Shown in pieces: positions 1,552-12,509 of a stretch of 12,509 bases of DNA. The notes under the pieces are model-generated. The model was not told the origin of the DNA. It made no database searches and saw nothing but the letters and a program-made list of their open reading frames with translations. Each line of letters opens with the position of its first letter. Positions within the stretch are counted from its first letter, which is position 1. The stretch is from an archaeon (GTDB lineage Archaea > EX4484-52 > B79-G9). The stretch is from positions 1-12,509 of the forward strand of contig JBDRKP010000065.1 of the NCBI GenBank assembly GCA_043813875.1, written 5' to 3'. Position numbers and translations under genes: made by a program.

Positions 1552-2838
1552 ATGACGACAATACCTATCCTTAAAAGCACGAAGTTTGATTGCAAAAGAC
1601 TGCGCCCGGATATGGATGATGCTCTCAATGCGGCGCGCCTGATAATAGATGATGTCAAGATGAGGGGCGATGAGGCATTAACCGAATATACGAAGAGATT
1701 CGATGGCGTCTACATCAATGAGCTCAAGGTGAGTGAAGAGGAAATCCGCGAAGCCTACTTTGTGGCTGATGAGGCGTTTGTCGCGTCAATACGCAAAGCC
1801 ATGGATAATGTCGAAAAGTTCCAGAAGGTCCTTTTGAAGGAGGATGTCTTTGCAGATATCTCCGATGGAATCAGATTGAGGTCGCTTGTGAGGCCGATCG
1901 ATAATATCGGCGCGTATGTGCCGGGAGGAACCGCATCATATGTGTCGACCGCTTATATGATCGGAATACCTGCAACGATTGCCGGGTGCAGGCGCAGGAT
2001 TGTCTTTACGCCGCCTAATAAATACGGCAAGATAAACCCGTATCTCATTGTCGCATGCGATATGGCGGGATTCAGCGAGATATACAAGGCGGGGGGAGCG
2101 CAGGCAATCGCTGCCATGGCATACGGGACCGAGAGTGCCGGCAAGGTCGAGAAGATATTCGGGCCGGGGAATGTGTTTGTGAATGCGGCCAAGATGATTG
2201 TCAGGGATGATGTCGCTGTCGATATGGTGGCGGGACCGTCGGAGGTGATGATCATCGCTGATGAATCGTGCAATCCGGCCTTTGTCGCAGCGGATATGCT
2301 TTCGCAGGCAGAGCATGATGCTTTATCCACAGCTCTGCTTCTCACTGATTCGCGTGATGTGGCGGATGCTGTGAAAAAAGAGATTGATTCGCAGCTAAAC
2401 GAGCTTCTGCGCAAGGACATCGCCAGAAAGGCGCTCAAGGATTACGGAAAAATCGTGGTATGCGAATCCATTGATGAATGCATCGATATCGCCAATGAGT
2501 TCGCTCCCGAGCACCTTGAGATCGCTACCAAGGATGCAGAGGATGCGCTTTCAAAGATAAGGAATGCAGGCTCTGTCTTTCTTGGCAATCTCTCGTCTGT
2601 CGTGATGGGAGATTATGCGACCGGGACCAACCACGTGCTTCCCACAATGGGATTCGCAAAGAGCATGTCGGGGCTTTCTGTTGATGATTTCGTGCGAAGG
2701 ATGGAAGTGAGTTCTATCGGGACTGAAGGACTTGCCGATATAGGGCAGACTATTGTGAGCCTTTCAGAGCTTGAGGGCCTCTTTGGGCACGCCAATGCAG
2801 TCAAATTAAGAATGGATAAAATGGAGGAGTCAAAATGA
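1552..2838 (+). CDS. hisD: Histidinol dehydrogenase
   Basis: GAYVPGG, GGAQAIAAMAYG, KIFGPGNVFV, DMVAGPSEV, DMLSQAEHD, FAPEHLE, GDYATGTNHVLPT. GAGGTGA RBS. Confidence 0.98.
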   Translation: MTTIPILKSTKFDCKRLRPDMDDALNAARLIIDDVKMRGDEALTEYTKRFDGVYINELKVSEEEIREAYFVADEAFVASIRKAMDNVEKFQKVLLKEDVFADISDGIRLRSLVRPIDNIGAYVPGGTASYVSTAYMIGIPATIAGCRRRIVFTPPNKYGKINPYLIVACDMAGFSEIYKAGGAQAIAAMAYGTESAGKVEKIFGPGNVFVNAAKMIVRDDVAVDMVAGPSEVMIIADESCNPAFVAADMLSQAEHDALSTALLLTDSRDVADAVKKEIDSQLNELLRKDIARKALKDYGKIVVCESIDECIDIANEFAPEHLEIATKDAEDALSKIRNAGSVFLGNLSSVVMGDYATGTNHVLPTMGFAKSMSGLSVDDFVRRMEVSSIGTEGLADIGQTIVSLSELEGLFGHANAVKLRMDKMEESK

Positions 2839-3416
2839 GCGTCAATGTTGAACGGAATACCAATGAGACAAAGATATGTGTAAAATTAGACATATACGGG
2901 AGCGGTCGGACGAAGATAGATACAGGGATACCGTTTTTTGACCACATGGTCGACAGCCTTGCACGGTTCGCACTGTTTGATCTTGTGGTCGAGTGCAAGG
3001 CAGACCTTGCTGTTGAAGATCACCACATGATAGAGGATGTGGCTATCGTGCTTGCGGAGGCGCTTCTTAAGGCTACGGGAGAACGGAAAGGCATAAACAG
3101 GATAGGCTATTCGATACTTCCTATGGATGATGCGGTCGTCATGGTGTCGATTGATCTTTCGAGGTCGTATTTCCAGCAGAGGGGCATCGCATTTTCGAAA
3201 GAGAAGTTCGGGAGCCTGTCTACTGAGAATATAGCGCCTTTTTTTGAGAGTCTTGCGCTCAATGCGAAGATGACGCTTTATATGAACAAGATTGAGGGAA
3301 CAAATGACCACCACATCGCTGAGGCGTGCTTCAAGGCGCTCGGATGCGCGCTCAAGATGGCGGTAGCGAAGGATGAAAGAATGCGTGATGCGCTGAGCAC
3401 GAAGGGTGTCTTATGA
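2835..3416 (+). CDS. hisB: Imidazoleglycerol-phosphate dehydratase (monofunctional)
   Basis: RNTNETKI, TGIPFFDHM, DHHMIEDV, PMDDA, NDHHIAEACFKA, STKGVL. No N-terminal phosphatase domain. ATGA overlap with hisD. Confidence 0.97.
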   Translation: MSVNVERNTNETKICVKLDIYGSGRTKIDTGIPFFDHMVDSLARFALFDLVVECKADLAVEDHHMIEDVAIVLAEALLKATGERKGINRIGYSILPMDDAVVMVSIDLSRSYFQQRGIAFSKEKFGSLSTENIAPFFESLALNAKMTLYMNKIEGTNDHHIAEACFKALGCALKMAVAKDERMRDALSTKGVL

Positions 3417-5137
3417 TGGTATCTGCCAAAAAATCGGTTTTAGGGATGAAGGAATATGTCCCACCAACGGCCAAGAGAAGAGGTATGCTTAGGCTTGACT
3501 TCAATGAGAATACGCGGGGGTGTTCGCCTAAGGTACTTGCCGCGCTCAAGGAGATCAAGGCAGATGATGTGTCCATATATCCGGATTACTCGGGTGTCTC
3601 CAAGATGATCGCCGGATATGTCGGGAACGGGATTGTGAGTGAACAGACAATGATCACAAACGGGAGCGATGAGGCAATCAAGTGTATCATGGATACTTAT
3701 GTCGAGTGCGGGGATGAGGTCGTGATGGCTGTGCCGACGTTTGACATATTCAGGGTGTATGCGACTGTCGCAGGGGCAAAGATTGTCGGTGTGCCTTATG
3801 GTGATGATATGGAGTTCCCGCTGGATGAGGTAGTATCTTCCATCAATGAGAGGACTAAGGTGGTGGTGATTGTGAATCCGAACAATCCTACCGGAACTGC
3901 CGTATCGAGGGAGGGGATACTGAAGGTCGTGAAGAAGGCAAAGGATTCTGTTGTCCTTATCGATGAGGCATATCTAGAGTATTACGGGGAGACGTGCGCT
4001 GATCTTGTCGCTATTTATGACAATGTATTTGTCATACGGACATTCTCCAAGGCGTTCGGGCTTGCGGGGCTAAGGATCGGGTATGTCCTGTCGGATGAGC
4101 GCAATATCGCATCACTGCTCAAGGTGAGGTCGCCTTACAGCATAGGGGCGGATGCGTGCATAGCGGTGGGTGCTGCGCTTGATGATGTTGATTTTGTCAG
4201 GGATTATGCGCGCGAGGTCAAAAAGAGCAGGAAGATGCTTTTTTTGGGGCTTTCCAGGCTCGGCGTCAAATGTTATCCGTCGTCTGCCAATTTTGTGCTT
4301 GCGGATTTCGGAAAGGATGCGGATTATGTGTGGAAGGAGCTTTTTTTGAATAACATCCTTACAAGAAGGTGGCCAATGAATGAGAGGCTCAAGAATTGTA
4401 TCAGGATAGGGGCAGGAACTTCTGAGGAGGCGGAGAAGGTGCTTTTGATTGTTGAGGCAGCGCTTTCTAAAAAGGAGGCGTTCATATTTGATGTAGACGG
4501 AGTGCTTGTCGACGTGTCCGGGTCTTACAGGCGGGCGGTGAAGGAGACGTGCGAGTTTTTCCTCAAAAGCGAGGTCACGGCGGATGAGATACAGAAGGTG
4601 AAGAATTCGGGCGGGTGCAATAATGACTGGGATCTTTCTATGAAAATCATCTCTCTGCGATGGAAAAATGTTCTGCGCGAGAATATAGTGTCAAAGTTCC
4701 AGGAGCTTTACATGAAGTACAGAAAGGATGAGAGATGGCTGATTTCACGGGATGTGATCGACGGGCTATCAAAGAGGTACAGGCTTGGAATCTTTAGCGG
4801 GAGGCCTCGAGAGGAATTGATTTTTGCTCTCCGTGAGTCCGGGATGGAGAAGTATTTCAATGCTGTCGTTGCCATGGAGGATGTGCCTGTGTCCAAGGGG
4901 AAGCCTGAGCCTTTCGGGTTGAAGCTTGCGCTTCGGATGCTCGGGTGCTCGAAGGGGTTCTATGCAGGGGATACTGTCGATGATGTCATGGCTGCAAAGG
5001 GCGCAGGGCTTGTGGCTGTCGGCGTGCTTGCCCCGCTGGACAAGTCGGATGAACTGAAAGGTATGCTGGTCTCTTTCGGGGCGGATTTTGTGGTGGATGA
5101 TGTCAATGACGTGTTAAACATTAATGGGGCGGTTTAG
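3413..5137 (+). CDS. hisC: Histidinol-phosphate aminotransferase fused to a C-terminal HAD-family hydrolase (probable histidinol-phosphate phosphatase)
   Basis: N-terminal ~350 aa: LDFNEN, NGSDEAI, NPNNPTG, IDEAY, RTFSKAFGLAGLRIG. C-terminal ~220 aa: FDVDGVLVD (HAD motif I, Asp codon at 4490), FSGRP, KPEP, GDTVDD. One continuous frame. Confidence 0.93.
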   Translation: MMVSAKKSVLGMKEYVPPTAKRRGMLRLDFNENTRGCSPKVLAALKEIKADDVSIYPDYSGVSKMIAGYVGNGIVSEQTMITNGSDEAIKCIMDTYVECGDEVVMAVPTFDIFRVYATVAGAKIVGVPYGDDMEFPLDEVVSSINERTKVVVIVNPNNPTGTAVSREGILKVVKKAKDSVVLIDEAYLEYYGETCADLVAIYDNVFVIRTFSKAFGLAGLRIGYVLSDERNIASLLKVRSPYSIGADACIAVGAALDDVDFVRDYAREVKKSRKMLFLGLSRLGVKCYPSSANFVLADFGKDADYVWKELFLNNILTRRWPMNERLKNCIRIGAGTSEEAEKVLLIVEAALSKKEAFIFDVDGVLVDVSGSYRRAVKETCEFFLKSEVTADEIQKVKNSGGCNNDWDLSMKIISLRWKNVLRENIVSKFQELYMKYRKDERWLISRDVIDGLSKRYRLGIFSGRPREELIFALRESGMEKYFNAVVAMEDVPVSKGKPEPFGLKLALRMLGCSKGFYAGDTVDDVMAAKGAGLVAVGVLAPLDKSDELKGMLVSFGADFVVDDVNDVLNINGAV

Positions 5138-6527: not shown

Positions 6528-7799
6528 ATGATTTTACCAAGTATTGATCTGTTGGACGGGAAAGCGGTGCAGCTGGTTGGCGGAGATCCCTTAAAGAAAA
6601 AGGTTGTCGTTGATGATGTTTTCGGGCTTGCGAGTGAGTTCTTTCGGTACGGGAAGTTCCAGGTGATTGATCTTGATGCAGCTTTCTGGAAGGGGAGAGA
6701 TAACAGAGGCATTGTAAAGGAGCTTTGCAGGAAGTATGATGTCAGGGTCGGCGGGGGTATAAGGACTGTCGATGAGGCGGTTGAGCTTGTCAGGTGCGGC
6801 GCAAAAGAGGTCATTATCGGGACGCGGGCGAACAAAGAGTTCCTAAAGGAACTTTGCGATGCTATCGGGCGAAAGAGGGTTGTTGTCGCGCTTGATGCGA
6901 GGAATGGAATGGTCGAGTCATGGGGATGGACCAAGGGTACTGGAAGGAGCGTTCTTGAGGTCGCAAAAGAGCTTGAGAACTACTGCTCTGAGTTCCTCTA
7001 TACCTGTATCGATAAGGAAGGGCGCATGATTGGCGGTGATATTGATACGGTCATGAAGCTCAAGGAAATCACGTCTAATAAGATCTGCGCGTCCGGAGGG
7101 ATATCTGCGGTTGATGAGATACGGAAGTTCGATGAGATAGGCGCTAATGTGGTCTTGGGGATGGCGCTTTATACAGGGAAGCTTTCTCTTGATGAGGTGT
7201 TTGCATCAAGGGTTGATTTTGCCAAGGGCGGGGGCATTGTGCCTGTTGTTGTCCAGGAGGCGGTCTCGCGGGATGTGCTTATGGTCGGATATATGGATAA
7301 GGAGGCGCTTTCTTTGACGCTCAAATCGGGTAAGATGACATATTACAGCAGGTCGAGGAAGAAGATGTGGGTCAAGGGCGAGGAGAGCGGGAATTCGCAG
7401 GAGCTTGTGTCTATAAAGCTTGACTGCGACAGGGACACTGTTCTTGCGACGGTCAGGCAGACGGGAGGTGCATGCCACACGGGAAGCTATTCATGCTTTG
7501 GTGATGAGAACCGGTCAGAAAGTAATATATTAACTGGCGTGTATAATGTTATCCAGGAAAGGATCAAGTATCCAAAAGAGGATTCATATACAAGCAAAAT
7601 CGCGAAGGATAAGGAACTGATCTCACGAAAGATCAATGAAGAGGCTCTGGAGGTCATTATTGCTTCAAAGGACGGGAAAAGAGAAGAGATCGTGTGGGAG
7701 ATTGCCGATCTTGTGTATTTTATTCTTGTTCTTGCTGCTGCCAATGATATCGATATGAGAGAGATATGGAATATGCTTGATTCAAGAAGGAGTGGTTGA
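6528..7799 (+). CDS. hisA: Trifunctional fusion: ProFAR isomerase (HisA), PR-AMP cyclohydrolase (HisI) and PR-ATP pyrophosphohydrolase (HisE)
   Basis: HisA: ILPSIDLLDGKAVQL, VIDLDAA, VGGGIR, ASGGI. HisI: PVVVQE, YYSRSR…WVKGEESGN, DCDRD, ACHTGSYSCF. HisE: SYTSKI, KINEEALEV, EIADLVY. Confidence 0.93.
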   Translation: MILPSIDLLDGKAVQLVGGDPLKKKVVVDDVFGLASEFFRYGKFQVIDLDAAFWKGRDNRGIVKELCRKYDVRVGGGIRTVDEAVELVRCGAKEVIIGTRANKEFLKELCDAIGRKRVVVALDARNGMVESWGWTKGTGRSVLEVAKELENYCSEFLYTCIDKEGRMIGGDIDTVMKLKEITSNKICASGGISAVDEIRKFDEIGANVVLGMALYTGKLSLDEVFASRVDFAKGGGIVPVVVQEAVSRDVLMVGYMDKEALSLTLKSGKMTYYSRSRKKMWVKGEESGNSQELVSIKLDCDRDTVLATVRQTGGACHTGSYSCFGDENRSESNILTGVYNVIQERIKYPKEDSYTSKIAKDKELISRKINEEALEVIIASKDGKREEIVWEIADLVYFILVLAAANDIDMREIWNMLDSRRSG

Positions 7800-7800
7800 T

Positions 7801-9087
7801 ATGGTCAAAATCGAGAAAGTGAAGGGCATGAGGGATTATGAGACTGAGGACATGGTCCTTCGGCGGAATGTCGTGGCGATGGTTGAGAAGATATTTGAGG
7901 CGCGCGGATTTGTGCCTATCGAGACGCCTGCGCTTGAGAAGTGGGATGTGCTTGCAGGGAAAGATGCAGGCGGGCGCGATATCTTAGAGCAGACGTTCAA
8001 TTTCCTTGACCAGGGGGACAGGAGGGTAGGGCTCAGGTATGATCTTACTGTGCCGCTTGTGAGATATGTGTCCGAGAGATCGAATATGGGGTTCCCGTTC
8101 AAGAGGTACCAGTACGGGCGAGTGTGGAGGTATGAGGAGACGCGGAAAGGACGGTATCGTGAGTTTTACCAGTTTGATATTGATATTGTCGGGGCTGGCT
8201 CTGTCGCTGCTGATGCCGAGTGCATAGCGACTATCACGGAGGCGCTTGGGGCGCTCGGTGTCGGGAAGTTCAAGGTGCTTATCAGCAACCGGAAGGTTGC
8301 CGAAGGGGTGCTTAATTTTCTTGGGATAAAGACGAAGAAGCAGGTTGACGGGGCGATGAGGACTATCGACAAGGCGGAGAAGCTGTCGAGGGCGAATCTT
8401 ATCAAGGAGTTCAAGCAGTATGATATTGTGGAGGCGCAGGCGATTGAGATCATCAATGCGCTTTCGAGGAAGGGCAGGCCGGTCGAGGTCATACGCAGCA
8501 TGTTGAAGGAGTTCCCGGACAATGACAAGGTACTTCTGGGTATCTCTGAGCTTGAGAAGCTTGTGGATTATCTCAATGCTTACGGGGTGACTGACAGGTG
8601 TGAGCTTGATCTTTCGCTTGTGCGGGGGCTCGGGTATTATACGGGGTGCGTGTTTGAGGCGCGGCTTGATAAGGGAGGGGACAGCATCGCGGGAGGCGGA
8701 CGTTATGATAAGGTCATCGGGTCGTTTACTTCGCGAGAGATTCCGGCGGTCGGGTTTTCGCTCGGCATCGAGAGGATCCTTAATATCCTGAAGGAGAAGG
8801 ATTATGTGAAGAGGCCGCTTGTTGAGTATTTTGTGCTTTATGCGGGGGCGGAGATGGAGTTTTCGGCTATCAAGATCGCGGAGGCGCTACGGGCTGAGGG
8901 GAGGATTGCCGAGGTCGATCTTATGGGAAGGAATTTTTCCGGGCAGATGAAGTATGCGGACAGGATTGGAGCGCTGAAAGTGGTCATCGTCGGGCAGAAA
9001 GAGATGGCCAGCGGCAATGTGGTTGTGAAGGATATGAAGAGCGGGAAGGAGCTAATAGTTGCTGTCGAGGGGATTTTGGGGGTCTGA
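7801..9087 (+). CDS. hisS: Histidyl-tRNA synthetase
   Basis: Likely start ATG 7801 (AGGAGTGG upstream). KGMRDY, LRYDLTVP, WRYE…GRYREFYQFDID, LVRGLGYYTG, GGGRYD, plus a C-terminal anticodon-binding domain (QMKYAD…VIVGQKE…VVKDM). Confidence 0.96.
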   Translation: MVKIEKVKGMRDYETEDMVLRRNVVAMVEKIFEARGFVPIETPALEKWDVLAGKDAGGRDILEQTFNFLDQGDRRVGLRYDLTVPLVRYVSERSNMGFPFKRYQYGRVWRYEETRKGRYREFYQFDIDIVGAGSVAADAECIATITEALGALGVGKFKVLISNRKVAEGVLNFLGIKTKKQVDGAMRTIDKAEKLSRANLIKEFKQYDIVEAQAIEIINALSRKGRPVEVIRSMLKEFPDNDKVLLGISELEKLVDYLNAYGVTDRCELDLSLVRGLGYYTGCVFEARLDKGGDSIAGGGRYDKVIGSFTSREIPAVGFSLGIERILNILKEKDYVKRPLVEYFVLYAGAEMEFSAIKIAEALRAEGRIAEVDLMGRNFSGQMKYADRIGALKVVIVGQKEMASGNVVVKDMKSGKELIVAVEGILGV

Positions 9088-9091
9088 GTTG

Positions 9092-9922
9092 TCATATCAA
9101 GTGCGATAGTCTTTCTATGTCACGGTTTGTCACGTGGGTGTAAATCTGCGTTGTCCTTATGTCTTTGTGGCCTAGAAGCTTTTGGATGTGGCGTATATCC
9201 GCGCCATTGTCTAGTAAATGGGTTGCAAAGGCGTGCCTTAATGTGTGAGGTGTTGCTTTTTTGTTAAATGTTGGCAGAGTTGATGCTTTTTTTACTATCT
9301 TCTGGATTGTTTTTTTGTTGTATCTTGTTCCTCTTTTTGATATGAAAATGAAGCCTTTGTCTTTGATGTCGTGTAGTTTCAAGACTCCTTTTAGGCTGTT
9401 GTGGAGGAAAACTATGCGGTGTTTGTCACCTTTTGCTGTCTTTAAGTGTATGATTGAGCGTTCAAAGTCAATGTCCTGCCACATGAGGTTTCTTACTTCG
9501 TCGAGCCTTAAGCCTGCGTAGTACAAAAACATCAAGATGAGCCGATGTTTGAGATTTGCGGTCGAGTTGATTATGATGTCTATGTCGTGCCTGCTTAGGA
9601 TGACGGGAAGTTTCTGATCTTTTTTTGCCAGAGGGATTTTTTGATTGAAATCAATGTCTAAGACGTGATTGTGGAAGAATTTCAGGGCAAAATAGTTTGT
9701 TCTTACGGTGGAGTTGGATTTCTCTGATTGCATTAAGAGATAGTCTCTTGGGCTTTTTCCTGTTTTGAGGTAGTTTTTGATTATTGATATGTAGACTTTT
9801 CCTGTCTCGTAGGAGTATTTGCGTAGTTTGATTTCTTCGATTAGTTTGCCGATGAGGCGATATATCTCATCTGGTGTGTGAATGATTGTGGGATTTTGGT
9901 CTTGAGTTTTTGTGTATATCAT
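9092..9922 (-). CDS. Tyrosine recombinase, integron-integrase-like / XerA-like (~276 aa)
   Basis: Catalytic set YAGLRLDE (R), AKGDK (K), HTLRH (HxxR), LLGH, TTQIYTHV (Y). N-terminal LRKYSYET..VY and KLPVILS resemble IntI. Start reassigned to ATG 9922 because the longer 10069 frame runs through the att region and a TATA-like box lies ~25 bp upstream of 9922. Confidence 0.9.
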   Translation of the reverse strand: MIYTKTQDQNPTIIHTPDEIYRLIGKLIEEIKLRKYSYETGKVYISIIKNYLKTGKSPRDYLLMQSEKSNSTVRTNYFALKFFHNHVLDIDFNQKIPLAKKDQKLPVILSRHDIDIIINSTANLKHRLILMFLYYAGLRLDEVRNLMWQDIDFERSIIHLKTAKGDKHRIVFLHNSLKGVLKLHDIKDKGFIFISKRGTRYNKKTIQKIVKKASTLPTFNKKATPHTLRHAFATHLLDNGADIRHIQKLLGHKDIRTTQIYTHVTNRDIERLSHLI

Positions 9923-9942
9923 CTGATTGAATGAGGTTTTTT

Positions 9943-9953
9943 TAGATATAAGT
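9943..9953 (-). promoter_or_regulatory. Putative TATA box of the recombinase gene (possibly a leaderless transcript)
   Basis: Minus strand reads ACTTATATCTA, ~25 nt upstream of ATG 9922. Confidence 0.4.
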
Positions 9954-9996
9954 ATTGTGGATAGGGTTTGCCGATAGCCGATATAATTAAATCGCC

Positions 9997-10067
9997 AAAA
10001 AGTTCGCTTTTTGCTCATTTTTTGAGGGTTAAACGAACTAAAAGTTCGTTTAATAGTTGTTATATTC
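9997..10067 (+). other. attI-like primary recombination site
   Basis: Upstream of the divergent recombinase. Direct repeat AAAAGTTCG (9998-10006, 10040-10048), perfect 11-bp inverted repeat TTAAACGAACT-AAA-AGTTCGTTTAA (10029-10053), then the core GTTATATTC (10059-10067). Confidence 0.65.
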
Positions 10068-10221
10068 AATCGTCGTGTAGAATTATTAGGGGGGGGTTTC
10101 CGCCTTTAGTGCTACGCACATTTAGCCTTTTTCTACGAAAAAGAATTTATAAGGGGGATTTCCTAAGTCCTGCGAACATTTTGCCTCACTTCGTGAGAAT
10201 ATTAATAGAAAGAGAGGGCGT
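10066..10221 (+). repeat. Non-coding cassette module, copy A (imperfect inverted repeat of 11772-11910)
   Basis: Five colinear blocks shared with the reverse complement of copy B: TCGTCGTGT, GGGGGTTTCCGCC, AAAAAGAAT, GGGGGATTT, AGAGAGGGCGT. Confidence 0.75.
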
Positions 10222-10222
10222 T

Positions 10223-11569
10223 TTATTCTAATTTTGCTCCCTTTTTACGATTACATTCAATACATAAAAGTTGTCCATTTTCAACTATGGATCTTCCGGT
10301 TTTACTATGAGGGACTATATGGTCTGCCTCAAATTCTGCCCAAAGTATCTCTTTCTTACAATTTTGACATAATCCTCCTGCTTTTCTAAATATCTCAATT
10401 TTATCTTTCAAATTAAATGCCCTTTTTTCATCTAATTCCGCAATATGAGGACATTTTGCAAAGAATGATGAAGTTATAATCATATCTCTAGATATTAAAC
10501 TAGCCTTGTCTTGTTGTCGTTTGTTACTAAATCTAATAATTTCATCATCTTCGTCATTTTGTTTTATCCACCTGCTAAAAAAATCAAAAATAAACTCTCT
10601 AAATTCAGGATAATTATTTTTTCCGAAATTATACTTTTTTGAGTTTAATTTTCTTAACAAAATATATGTAGAAATAATAAAATATTCCCTACTAAGCATG
10701 ATAGCTTCTCCTTTCTTATCTTTAAATTTTTGATCATTAAATATTTCATATAATATCTTTAACATATTTAGACAATTTATAACTTCTTTCTTCTTTTCAA
10801 ATTCACTAAGAGGCATATTTGAATAGTGATCCATTAATTTTGTAATTTCAGTATCTTTTAGTTCTGAGGGACCATCTTCAAACTCAATTATTAGAAATCG
10901 TGCCAATAATGCAAGATTTTGCAAACGATCATTATTTTGTTTAATTATTTTAAAAAATTTGTGTCTATCTGGATTTTCATCCTTTGAGAGATATTCCTTA
11001 TCATTGAAGGAGATATCATCAGCATATTTTACTATAAAATTTCTAGATGCACTATATAATTTAGAATGCTCAATTTCAAAATTACTTAGGGGGACCCCGG
11101 AATTTAGTCTTTGAAAAATTCCCGAAACGATCTTTTGGTGTTTTTTGTTGTGAGGATCATTTATTATCCCTATCTTACTACAGGGCAATACTAATTCTTC
11201 AAAATATTCTTGAACTTCTGGATCCATTTTAGAGAATAATCTTCCTCCGAATTTATCATTTATTTCATTTAGTACCAAGGGGGTTTTAAATCCATCTTCA
11301 AAAAATTCTTGAATTGCAGTAATTCTTTGCTGTCCATCAATAACATCAAACTTTAAAACTCCTTCTTTTGGAACAACTTCTCTTAAGATAATTCTTGGAA
11401 CAAAATATTTTCTAAATAAGCTCTCAATAAATTTCTGTTTTTTAATAGGAGGCCAAACATTTTTTCTTTGATAGGGTGGCCTTTTAATGTAGAGATTTTT
11501 TTTATTATTAAAATCTTTAAGATAAATTTCTCCATCCGTGGCCATAAAATCGGTTTTAATGTGAATCAT
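10223..11569 (-). CDS. DUF262 (ParB-like, GmrS-type) domain fused to a C-terminal HNH endonuclease; probable restriction/defence nuclease
   Basis: DUF262 motifs RPPYQRKNVW, IESL, VIDGQQRITAI, FQRLNSGVPLS. C-terminal CQNC…EADHIVPHSKTG…NGQLLCIECNRKKG (Zn-binding HNH). Confidence 0.88.
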   Translation of the reverse strand: MIHIKTDFMATDGEIYLKDFNNKKNLYIKRPPYQRKNVWPPIKKQKFIESLFRKYFVPRIILREVVPKEGVLKFDVIDGQQRITAIQEFFEDGFKTPLVLNEINDKFGGRLFSKMDPEVQEYFEELVLPCSKIGIINDPHNKKHQKIVSGIFQRLNSGVPLSNFEIEHSKLYSASRNFIVKYADDISFNDKEYLSKDENPDRHKFFKIIKQNNDRLQNLALLARFLIIEFEDGPSELKDTEITKLMDHYSNMPLSEFEKKKEVINCLNMLKILYEIFNDQKFKDKKGEAIMLSREYFIISTYILLRKLNSKKYNFGKNNYPEFREFIFDFFSRWIKQNDEDDEIIRFSNKRQQDKASLISRDMIITSSFFAKCPHIAELDEKRAFNLKDKIEIFRKAGGLCQNCKKEILWAEFEADHIVPHSKTGRSIVENGQLLCIECNRKKGAKLE

Positions 11570-11712
11570 TTCCTGTCCCCCTTCCCCCTCAATTCCTCAA
11601 CCATAAAATTCTCAAACTGCTTCGACAAAATAATACCTTTTTGTTCGCAGTGTTTTCTGTATTCTTCATAAACTCCTTCTTCAACACTTAATGATACGGT
11701 TCTTTTTGCCAT
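11566..11712 (-). CDS. Small ribbon-helix-helix (CopG/Arc-like) DNA-binding protein, 48 aa (MAKRTVSLSVEEGVYEEYRKHCEQKGIILSKQFENFMVEELRGKGDRK)
   Basis: Translated by hand; below the ORF-track cutoff. Alternating beta-strand RTVSLSV followed by two amphipathic helices with a KG-I-LS turn. Its TGA overlaps the DUF262 ATG (ATGA). Confidence 0.75.
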   Translation of the reverse strand: MAKRTVSLSVEEGVYEEYRKHCEQKGIILSKQFENFMVEELRGKGDRK

Positions 11713-11728
11713 ATTTACCAATCCATTT

Positions 11729-11768
11729 ATGTATATATAAGCTTAAATGTAACTTATTTATAAATCTT
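11729..11768 (-). promoter_or_regulatory. Putative archaeal promoter (and operator) of the RHH-DUF262 operon
   Basis: Minus strand has AAGATTTATAAATAAG (11768-11753) and CTTATATATACAT (11741-11729). ATGTA is repeated at 11729 and 11747. Confidence 0.5.
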
Positions 11769-11771
11769 ACG

Positions 11772-11910
11772 ACGCCCTCTCTAAAAAATCTTCTTTTTGT
11801 AAAAAGAACCAAAAACAACGCAAATCCCCCCACTATTCTTTTTTTATAAAAAATAAGCAAAAAACGGCGGCGGAAACCCCCATAAAAAACTATAGACACG
11901 ACGACTTTGA
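11772..11910 (-). repeat. Non-coding cassette module, copy B (inverted relative to 10066-10221)
   Basis: Top-strand blocks ACGCCCTCTCT 11772-11782, AAATCCCCC 11822-11830, ATTCTTTTT 11835-11843, GGCGGAAACCCCC 11869-11881, ACACGACGA 11896-11904. Confidence 0.75.
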
Positions 11911-11957
11911 TTTTTTGCCTTCGGCATCGTTGCACTAAAAATCAATCCCTATCGGGA

Positions 11958-12089
11958 GAATATAACAGCGATTAAGAGATTCCGAAGTCTTGCAGACTTC
12001 TCCATCCAAATTCGGTTTTTGTGGGTTGCCTCAAAACCTACGGGGAAATAAATCCTTCGGATTTACTTCTCTTAATCGCGATGTTAGTT
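11958..12089 (+). other. attC-like cassette recombination site (~130 bp hairpin)
   Basis: Left arm GAATATAAC-A-GCGATTAAGAGA; right arm TCTCTTAATCGC-GA-T-GTTAGTT. TAACA pairs with TGTTA, followed by a perfect 12-bp stem (11968-11979 with 12068-12079). Three internal hairpins form the variable terminal structure. Confidence 0.8.
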
Positions 12090-12254
12090 TCAATTGAGAA
12101 TTCGCCGTCCTATATAATTTAAAATCGCCCTTTAGCCATCCCCCGACCACCCGTCCCAGTTACGAGGTGCGCGCCTGTCCTTCGGACAATTTGTGAAACT
12201 TCGTTTCAAATTTATTTAGAAATAATCTTTTTTCCGCCGCCGAAAAATTTTGAT

Positions 12255-12271
12255 AGAAAGTTTTATATAAG
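12255..12271 (+). promoter_or_regulatory. Archaeal BRE-TATA-like promoter inside cassette 2
   Basis: AGAAAGTTTTATATAAG: a purine-rich BRE-like stretch followed by TTTATATA. Confidence 0.6.
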
Positions 12272-12365
12272 TCTTTCTTTTACTTTTATTGTGGGGTGAT
12301 GGTACCTCAGAAACCTTATTCTGAATCACAATAAAGTTTAAATAAACTAAATGCAGCTTAAGAAC

Positions 12366-12509
12366 ATGGAAAAAGCATATCAACCATCCAGAGAACAGCA
12401 AGACTATCTTGAGATTAGTTCTGTTTTGGAAAATGCACCTTACCTTCTTAACGAAGGTAGAAGTTTGAGTTATGTTGGTGCAGGAAAATCCAAATCTGGA
12501 ACTTGTAAT
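12366..12509 (+). CDS. 5' part of a hypothetical cassette gene (MEKAYQPSREQQDYLEISSVLENAPYLLNEGRSLSYVGAGKSKSGTCN…), partial
   Basis: Open to the window edge, downstream of the BRE-TATA. An alternative in-frame ATG lies at 12351. Confidence 0.5.
   Translation, partial: MEKAYQPSREQQDYLEISSVLENAPYLLNEGRSLSYVGAGKSKSGTCN

Follow-up and report, generated by a model that had tools for sequence, protein, structure and literature searches.

Complementarity between the start of an archaeal gene cassette and its own folded end site suggests a recombination footprint in an integron-like array beside a XerA-type recombinase gene

The 12,509-base contig JBDRKP010000065.1 of a probable DPANN-type archaeon (hereafter the window, which is the entire contig and ends at 12509) raises the question of whether a gene cassette can keep, at its own left edge, the trace of the event that inserted it. 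The first bases of a candidate cassette at 10060-12083, located beside a XerA-type tyrosine recombinase gene, complement the left end of the folded attC-like site that closes the same cassette, and a preliminary description of the window had read this match as the scar of a circular cassette integrated at attI. The system is an integron-like cassette platform of DPANN-type archaea, here with a GmrSD/HNH defence gene. Judged from the sequence relations reported below, the match is taken as the genuine footprint of a recombination event in an integron-like system, with private stems extending it, and 10060-12083 would be one mobile cassette inserted as a circle at an att site beside the recombinase gene, with a probability of roughly 0.7. 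In the labels used here, G000 is the source genome, other G numbers are relatives, C is a contig and L is an extracted stretch.

The match itself is exact as described, with GTTATATTC (10059-10067) being the perfect reverse complement of GAATATAAC (11958-11966), and an inverted-repeat search extended the pair to 18 nucleotides (nt) at 89% (10050-10067 and 11958-11975). The partial match of the current right end of the attC was also confirmed, since GTTAGTTTC (12083-12091) matches the complement of the left end everywhere except at positions 5 and 6. The nine bases belong to a core, GTTATATTCAAT (10059-10070, forward strand), in which the crossover is proposed to lie in GTT (10059-10061) and cassette sequence to run from 10060, as delimited by recurrence, the table of site pairs and metagenome contigs. 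The core GTTAnnTTCAAT was found at 5 places in the source genome, including this one, and also beside the recombinase genes of 4 relatives. Core conservation spans the proposed crossover, and two nn bases alone separate the cassette start (TA) from the present end of the attC (GT). Moreover, GTTATATTC is the commonest variant, with 9 of the 62 left ends complementing it and 11 of the 62 upstream right ends identical to it (hand count). Taken alone, the nine-base match would be barely above chance, because it consists mostly of the conserved core GTTAnnTTCAAT and of its commonest variant.

The match is lifted above chance by further collinear complementarity beyond the nine bases. TCGTCGTGT (10070-10078) pairs exactly over 9 nt with ACACGACGA (11896-11904), and GGGGGTTTCCGCC (10092-10104) pairs exactly over 13 nt with GGCGGAAACCCCC (11869-11881), the three complements of 9, 9 and 13 nt all being exact and in collinear order. 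The first members of these pairs form the right arms of two private outer stems (clamp 1 and clamp 2, respectively) and both left arms fall within 11869-11904 (all read on the forward strand), and the two extra stems require circularisation of 10060-12083. The preliminary description had stated that such circularisation restores a paired R box, which was borne out: in the circle GAATATAAC and GTTATATTC pair exactly and the 9- and 13-nt stems are added. Folded as DNA, the circular junction, in which clamp 2 is paired, reached -68.7 kcal/mol, compared with -40.5 kcal/mol for the integrated context and -39.7 ± 2.2 kcal/mol (minimum -47.4) for control folds combining the same left part with 200 random 62-nt pieces of cassette interior, so that the junction was about 28 kcal/mol better than either.

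The generality of these relations was assessed in 87 sites forming 62 consecutive pairs on 22 stretches of the source genome and 13 relatives. The sites were derived from a covariance model of the attC-like site, R1, which was built from 15 sites and gave 85 matches on 29 stretches; two of these were dropped (a reverse-strand echo in L102 and a weak attI-like match in L105) and four recombinase-proximal first sites were added. No distance filter was applied to the pairs, ten sites with odd ends were kept, and R1 is blind to relations between neighbouring sites. The complement of the attC left end was nearer to the right end of the upstream site in 47 of the 62 pairs, whereas 6 pairs favoured the right end of the same attC and 9 showed no difference (sign test, p = 6e-9), in a set whose relatives are not independent samples and which includes the 15 sites that trained R1. 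A perfect complement was observed at the upstream site in 30 pairs and at the own right end in 4, with mean mismatches of 0.92 and 2.65, respectively. In relative G022 (C28), the first site is GTTAGTTTC and is followed by an attC starting with GAAACTAAC, which is the kind of pair that the preliminary description had predicted. Private outer stems of at least 9 nt were present in 46 of 62 cassettes, with a median of 12 nt and mostly starting from the T of CAAT, versus 8 of 202 mismatched cassette pairs, where the longest was 10 nt. The part of the footprint claim by which the first bases of a cassette represent the 3' half of its own circular R box thus stands (47 versus 6 pairs).

The same cargo was also observed at about 95% identity in contigs of three other groundwater runs, where the match begins at 10059-10061 and is preceded by unlike sequence, which may be taken as a hint of mobility. 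This comparison used assembled Logan contigs of four runs, the best of which share at most 0.27 of the words of the window.

The attC-like site (11958-12094, forward strand) was the best match of R1 in the source genome (80 bits). It is composed of R'' (GAATATAAC, 11958-11966), L'' (GCGATTAAGAGA, 11968-11979), a branched middle with CCAAAT, L' (TCTCTTAATCGC, 12068-12079, the complement of L''), the spacer GAT and the R' core GTTAGTTTCAAT (12083-12094), the spacer on the L'-R' side being about 2 nt longer. It is preceded by a pre-R'' module of two small hairpins (11905-11957, forward strand) with the conserved word GTTGCACTAAA, which recurs directly upstream of 6 other attCs in L103, L104, L111 and L014. 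In the 15-sequence alignment, compensatory changes were found in 9 of 15 predicted stem pairs and TAAC/GTTA was kept in 15 of 15 sites, indicating that the fold is under selection. G-T wobbles were about 6 on one strand versus about 6 on the other (own count), with no strand favoured. R1 matched 5 places in the source genome and 31 of 41 related genomes, one family showing matches in 0 of 5 genomes.

Under the proposed mechanism, cassette 10060-12083, carrying a small open reading frame (ORF), the GmrSD/HNH nuclease gene and its own folded recombination site, would enter the att site in circular form, a tyrosine recombinase exchanging strands within GTT, the invariant triplet of the core GTTAnnTTCAAT. 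The circularised site would fold into a single long imperfect hairpin that starts with one or more private outer stems, continues through two small hairpins and the R and L boxes, and closes in a branched tip, and folded single strands would be the substrate. The exchange would break the R box of this hairpin (GAATATAAC / GTTATATTC); the part 3' of the cut, namely TTATATTCAAT with the right arms of the private stems, would become the left edge of the cassette, and the remainder would stay at the right edge, now before the first bases of the next cassette (TTAGTTTC...). Because the cut would lie within the R box, the attC left end would pair perfectly with the cassette start and imperfectly with the present right end. 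The private outer stems predict that the substrate is a circle, or a looped single strand, with its two ends zipped together. For the second cassette, the left end of its attC and the 140 nt upstream of that end are expected to complement TTAGTTTCAAT and the bases after it. The complement of the second cassette's start gave only chance 11-mers in the assembly. Two occurrences of GAAACTAAC in the source genome (C63 and C79) were considered as the predicted attC and set aside; neither is an R1 match, and both are uninformative because a 9-mer is expected about 12 times by chance in such a genome.

The preliminary description had placed the crossover at single-base resolution, which could not be upheld. 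GTT is invariant across the sites compared, and the comparison therefore bounds the crossover only to (N)GTT, in the interval between the L' stem of the same site and core position 4. On the left, the bases pair with the L'' side of the attC's own hairpin; on the right, core position 4 varies in L116 (GTTG versus GTTA) and tracks the upstream site in 3 of 3 informative pairs. Rarer variants at core positions 1-3 had no informative neighbour in L111, L118 and L122, and an R1 search of the rest of G022:C39 gave no site. A G|TT cut, proposed by analogy with IntI and Xer, would be consistent with these data and with Xer-type geometry.

The core that heads the array is located upstream of the recombinase gene, 137 nt from its divergent start, and ends an attI-like block, a conserved sequence of about 69 nt (10002-10070, forward strand) that recurs in the source genome. 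The block contains an L-box-like hairpin, TTAAACGAAC / GTTCGTTTAA (10029-10053, forward strand), which is an exact 10-bp inverted repeat; this stem is found with a flipped loop in the C77 copy, and a structurally equivalent stem is present at the orthologous sites of G005 and G007. Copies were found on C77 (L001 about 11525-11591) and, more diverged, on C80 (L106 about 4660-4728), both with no recombinase near, and a related copy lies on C77 at L001 1911 (within 1850-1922).

Further details of these copies were observed. A core copy is located on C1 (L107 7398-7409), and the extra copies of block or core on C77, C80 and C1 lie behind housekeeping genes with no recombinase near. The copy at L001 11581 stands at a drop in guanine plus cytosine (GC) content, and that at L001 1911 precedes a cassette with a degenerate attC (about L001 3380-3470), which is missed by R1 and keeps a 13-nt private stem.

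The neighbouring recombinase, P0001 (9092-9922, reverse strand, 276 amino acids (aa)), is transcribed away from the cassettes and matches Pfam Phage_integrase with an E-value of 9e-39. Among NCBIfam models its best match is XerA_Arch with 178.5 bits, below the cut-off of 220, and the integron integrase model TIGR02249 gave 171.7 bits in two stretches (cut-off 265), P0001 falling below both integron-integrase cut-offs. Its alignment with XerA of Pyrococcus (4a8e, E 6e-36) and Thermoplasma (5hxy, E 9e-35) covers almost all of the protein, whereas the match to the integron integrase VchIntIA (2a3v) is split, with residues 183-199 (17 aa) of P0001 facing IntI residues 179-240 (62 aa). All 7 aligned array-adjacent recombinases, from 5 genomes, were likewise without the insert. 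IntI uses an additional domain to read folded attC sites. The names attI and attC, as used in the preliminary description, imply a classical integron, which is not supported, the neighbouring recombinase being XerA-type and without the IntI-specific domain. Because P0001 is without this domain, catalysis by P0001 is only proposed, and the adjacent XerA-type enzyme would be the candidate catalyst.

A P0001 relative was found in 29 of 41 related genomes, and at least 10 of 47 recombinase places had an attC match within 6 kb on the same contig (hand count). Two layouts recur, with the site either divergent from the recombinase gene (G005, G007, G012, G034 and G005:C78) or directly past its stop codon (G022, G018 and G005:C65). 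In the congener G005, hisS lies beside the recombinase gene, both hisS and the adjoining recombinase fragment being 81% identical to those of the source genome, and the att site of this hisS-xerA locus is built alike but followed by another first cassette, in an array of at least 7.

One alternative is that an integron integrase from elsewhere, either unassembled or in another member of the community, moves the cassettes, the XerA-type neighbour serving chromosome resolution and its position being accidental or explained by an att site that also acts as dif. The logic of the sites, with R''/L''/L'/R', AAC/GTT and a crossover footprint, is that of IntI systems, passages of Ghaly et al. 2022 (PMC9668308) describe Nanoarchaeota genomes with 2-4 attCs and no IntI, and the source genome is a metagenome-assembled genome of 91.5% completeness, all of which would suit this alternative. 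A PF00589 search of the source genome, however, returned three matches only, namely P0001, a distant Xer-like protein on C55 and a pseudogene on C40, with no IntI among them; the insert is missing from all 7 aligned array-adjacent recombinases, and the adjacency of recombinase and array recurs in two fixed layouts. The supply of an integrase from elsewhere is accordingly considered unlikely. A reading of the att site as a plain dif was also considered and set aside. Its arms AGTTCGTTTAA and TTATATTCAAT agree at 6 of 11 positions (own count), which alone would not decide the matter, and the core occurs 5 times and the block about 4 times in the genome, unlike a single site per chromosome.

Regarding the two other PF00589 matches, the C55 protein (1676-3031, L129; 451 aa) scored 81 bits with XerA_Arch and 43 bits with the integron-integrase model. 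The C40 pseudogene (16427-16907, L108) has 4 stops within the PF00589 match, its last 52 aa are 67% identical to P0001, and it lies about 80 nt from a strong attC match (70.9 bits), so that this locus looks like a decayed second platform.

It may also be considered that the gene pair is an element with terminal inverted repeats (10059-10104 and 11869-11966) mobilised by a transposase in trans, in which case the match would not be a scar. The cargo is indeed flanked by long imperfect terminal inverted repeats, whose end modules are highly repeated in groundwater contigs, but the repeats start exactly at the conserved recombinase core that ends every upstream attC, successive cassettes adjoin head to tail, each pair sharing a single site and lacking target duplications, the variable core bases obey the neighbour rule, and no transposase gene is present in the window, which makes such a transposon highly unlikely. 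That the match has no history at all, GTTATATTC and GAATATAAC being a consensus core for protein binding carried independently by both ends, would suit the 7 of 9 bases that are invariant or nearly so and the occurrence of the commonest variant (the 9 left ends and 11 upstream right ends counted above, with four genomes carrying it beside the recombinase gene), but it leaves unexplained the additional exact stems (9 and 13 nt) as well as the 47:6 upstream preference and the 30 versus 4 perfect matches across non-TA variants, and is very improbable.

Several observations weigh against insertion of the cassette as a circle by a recombinase of the P0001 type. Six of the 62 pairs are closer to the attC's own right end and 9 are tied, the related genomes are non-independent and 15 of the sites were the training set of R1. 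In this cassette, history is carried only by two core bases (TA versus GT) and by the outer stems, and TA is the commonest variant. About 4 attI-like copies lie away from recombinase genes in the source genome, and the block is therefore unlike a single attI. P0001 is without the domain that IntI uses on folded attC. Finally, no circle or empty-site junction was seen, in contigs of four metagenome runs that give essentially no cover to 8500-9973 (hisS and the recombinase gene) and are therefore neutral on this point.

As in integrons, an insertion site adjoins the recombinase gene and leads into a row of equally oriented cassettes, most of which hold a single ORF; each cassette closes with an imperfect palindrome in which AAC...GTT triplets are present and the L stems covary, and the cargo is likewise of the defence type. 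The boundary rule of classical integrons states that a cassette starts with bases complementary to the left end of the site it carries, and this textbook rule of bacterial integrons holds here in arrays in which a Xer-type enzyme is the only neighbouring recombinase. The array differs from integrons in that the recombinase is without the IntI-specific domain and aligns with XerA end to end, the conserved core is longer (GTTAnnTTCAAT), and the site goes on beyond the R box, with stems private to each cassette (9-19 nt) and with small conserved hairpins. Since the site extends beyond the R box, far more than six bases would move to the cassette start. The attI-like block is, moreover, hairpin-bearing with several genomic copies, and the first site in some relatives lies downstream, not upstream, of the recombinase gene. 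In passages of Ghaly et al. 2022 (PMC9668308), archaeal integrons are defined by an IntI with the extra domain, and six IntIs are given for 539 archaeal attCs. A literature search, with most subscription journals outside its scope, found no paper on cassette arrays run by a XerA-type enzyme.

Small gene modules between Xer-type sites are also known as pdif modules of Acinetobacter plasmids, which are apparently shuffled by host Xer recombinases, the pdif sites being plain 28-bp duplex sites in alternating orientation. The arrangement of small gene modules is similar here, while the sites are long hairpins that all point the same way and show private stems and a crossover footprint. The CTX phage is an element that integrates by exploiting Xer, using a folded single strand. 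With Xer/dif systems the array shares a Xer-family enzyme without extra domains; in addition, the core, six bases and the L' arm may be read as 11-6-11, which would put G|TT at the border of spacer and arm where Xer cuts, and the helical spacing from TTAAT to GTTA in the folded attC equals that of the att site if two bases (GA) bulge. The differences are that the arms agree at only 6 of 11 positions, that the site is multi-copy and abuts the gene, and that the partner sites are selected for folding and stand in tandem arrays. In passages of Cortez et al. 2010 (PMC2958812), the archaeal dif is a duplex site of 11-6-11 layout with two similar arms, occurring once and not adjacent to xerA.

A broader proposal, for which the chances appear evenly balanced, is that DPANN-type archaea, and perhaps some candidate-phyla bacteria to judge by record titles, run a second kind of integron, with a plain XerA-type integrase without the IntI domain, long hairpin sites and a crossover inside a stem that continues into private clamps, representing either an ancestral Xer-based state that gave rise to IntI integrons or an independent reinvention. 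If true, this would explain why nearly all published archaeal attC clusters seem integrase-less. If a P0001-type enzyme does the work, folded-site cassette capture would be possible without the IntI-specific domain, which bears on the evolution of integrons from Xer recombinases and on the integrase-less archaeal attC clusters (PMC9668308). The footprint would also serve as an inexpensive means of delimiting cassettes and reconstructing their earlier reshuffling in these uncultured organisms.

Among 80 loci retrieved via P0001, attC-like R1 sites were observed upstream of and divergent from the recombinase gene at 5 (L004, L007, L011, L014 and L018), which come from public metagenome-assembled genome records titled Shapirobacteria, Uhrbacteria, Gammaproteobacteria, Saccharibacteria and Magasanikiibacteriota and all belong to the closest relatives of P0001 outside the order. 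The system may occur in candidate-phyla bacteria too, or these bins may be mislabelled.

The window contains one full cassette and the start of a second. The cargo of the first cassette is antisense, whereas the longest ORF lies in the sense direction in 48 of the 62 cassettes, whose median interior is 843 nt. The cargo gene (10223-11569, reverse strand) encodes a 448-aa protein with an N-terminal GmrSD_N domain (DUF262; Pfam E 1e-17) and a C-terminal HNH nuclease (E 1e-11), which is likely a type IV restriction-like defence enzyme according to these domain matches. The small ORF (11566-11721, reverse strand) is located upstream of the nuclease gene and overlaps it, and its translation gives 51 aa from a TTG start, with an ATG 3 codons in; it had no match in Pfam or NCBIfam, and by eye its product gives the impression of a ribbon-helix-helix protein. 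The second cassette (12084-12509, forward strand) is cut by the contig end and has an open ORF from 12351, and it repeats part of the left module of the first cassette directly (10167-10194 and 12177-12204).

Conserved modules rich in small TTCG-loop hairpins were observed at both cassette ends (10106-10200, 11905-11957 and 12177-12204), for example GTGCTACGCAC about 50 nt past the core and GTTGCACTAAA directly before R''. Some of the cassettes, from several genomes, have them in common, and groundwater contigs contain them in great abundance, the pre-R'' module being the most repeated part there (summed depth 10373, run X8). Apparent joints skipping from 10070-10106 to 11849-11904 were rejected as deletions and read as other cassettes with shared end modules and undetermined letters between, and a backward joint from 12094 to 10109 (X8) was rejected as the circle of this cassette, since 38 different letters lie between and point to another array. 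In a contig of run X4 with the same cargo, R'' and two further bases are kept (11958-11968) and are followed by a different L'', which suggests that the inner hairpin is exchangeable as a unit at the R''/L'' border. An Rfam scan of 9900-12509 gave a single sub-threshold snoRNA match, which was dismissed.

The source genome comprises 1.64 Mb in 90 contigs with a GC content of 0.44; the support for a DPANN-type source is limited to the archaeal best matches of the recombinase and of a TldD homologue and to the small genomes of the relatives. In the window, GC content drops to 0.31 right of 10059, versus 0.49 in the left flank, which consists of housekeeping genes including a hisF-hisIE fusion and hisS. 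A 423-aa ORF in this flank (6528-7799) combines His_biosynth (HisF/HisA-type), PRA-CH and PRA-PH domains in a three-domain histidine-biosynthesis fusion.

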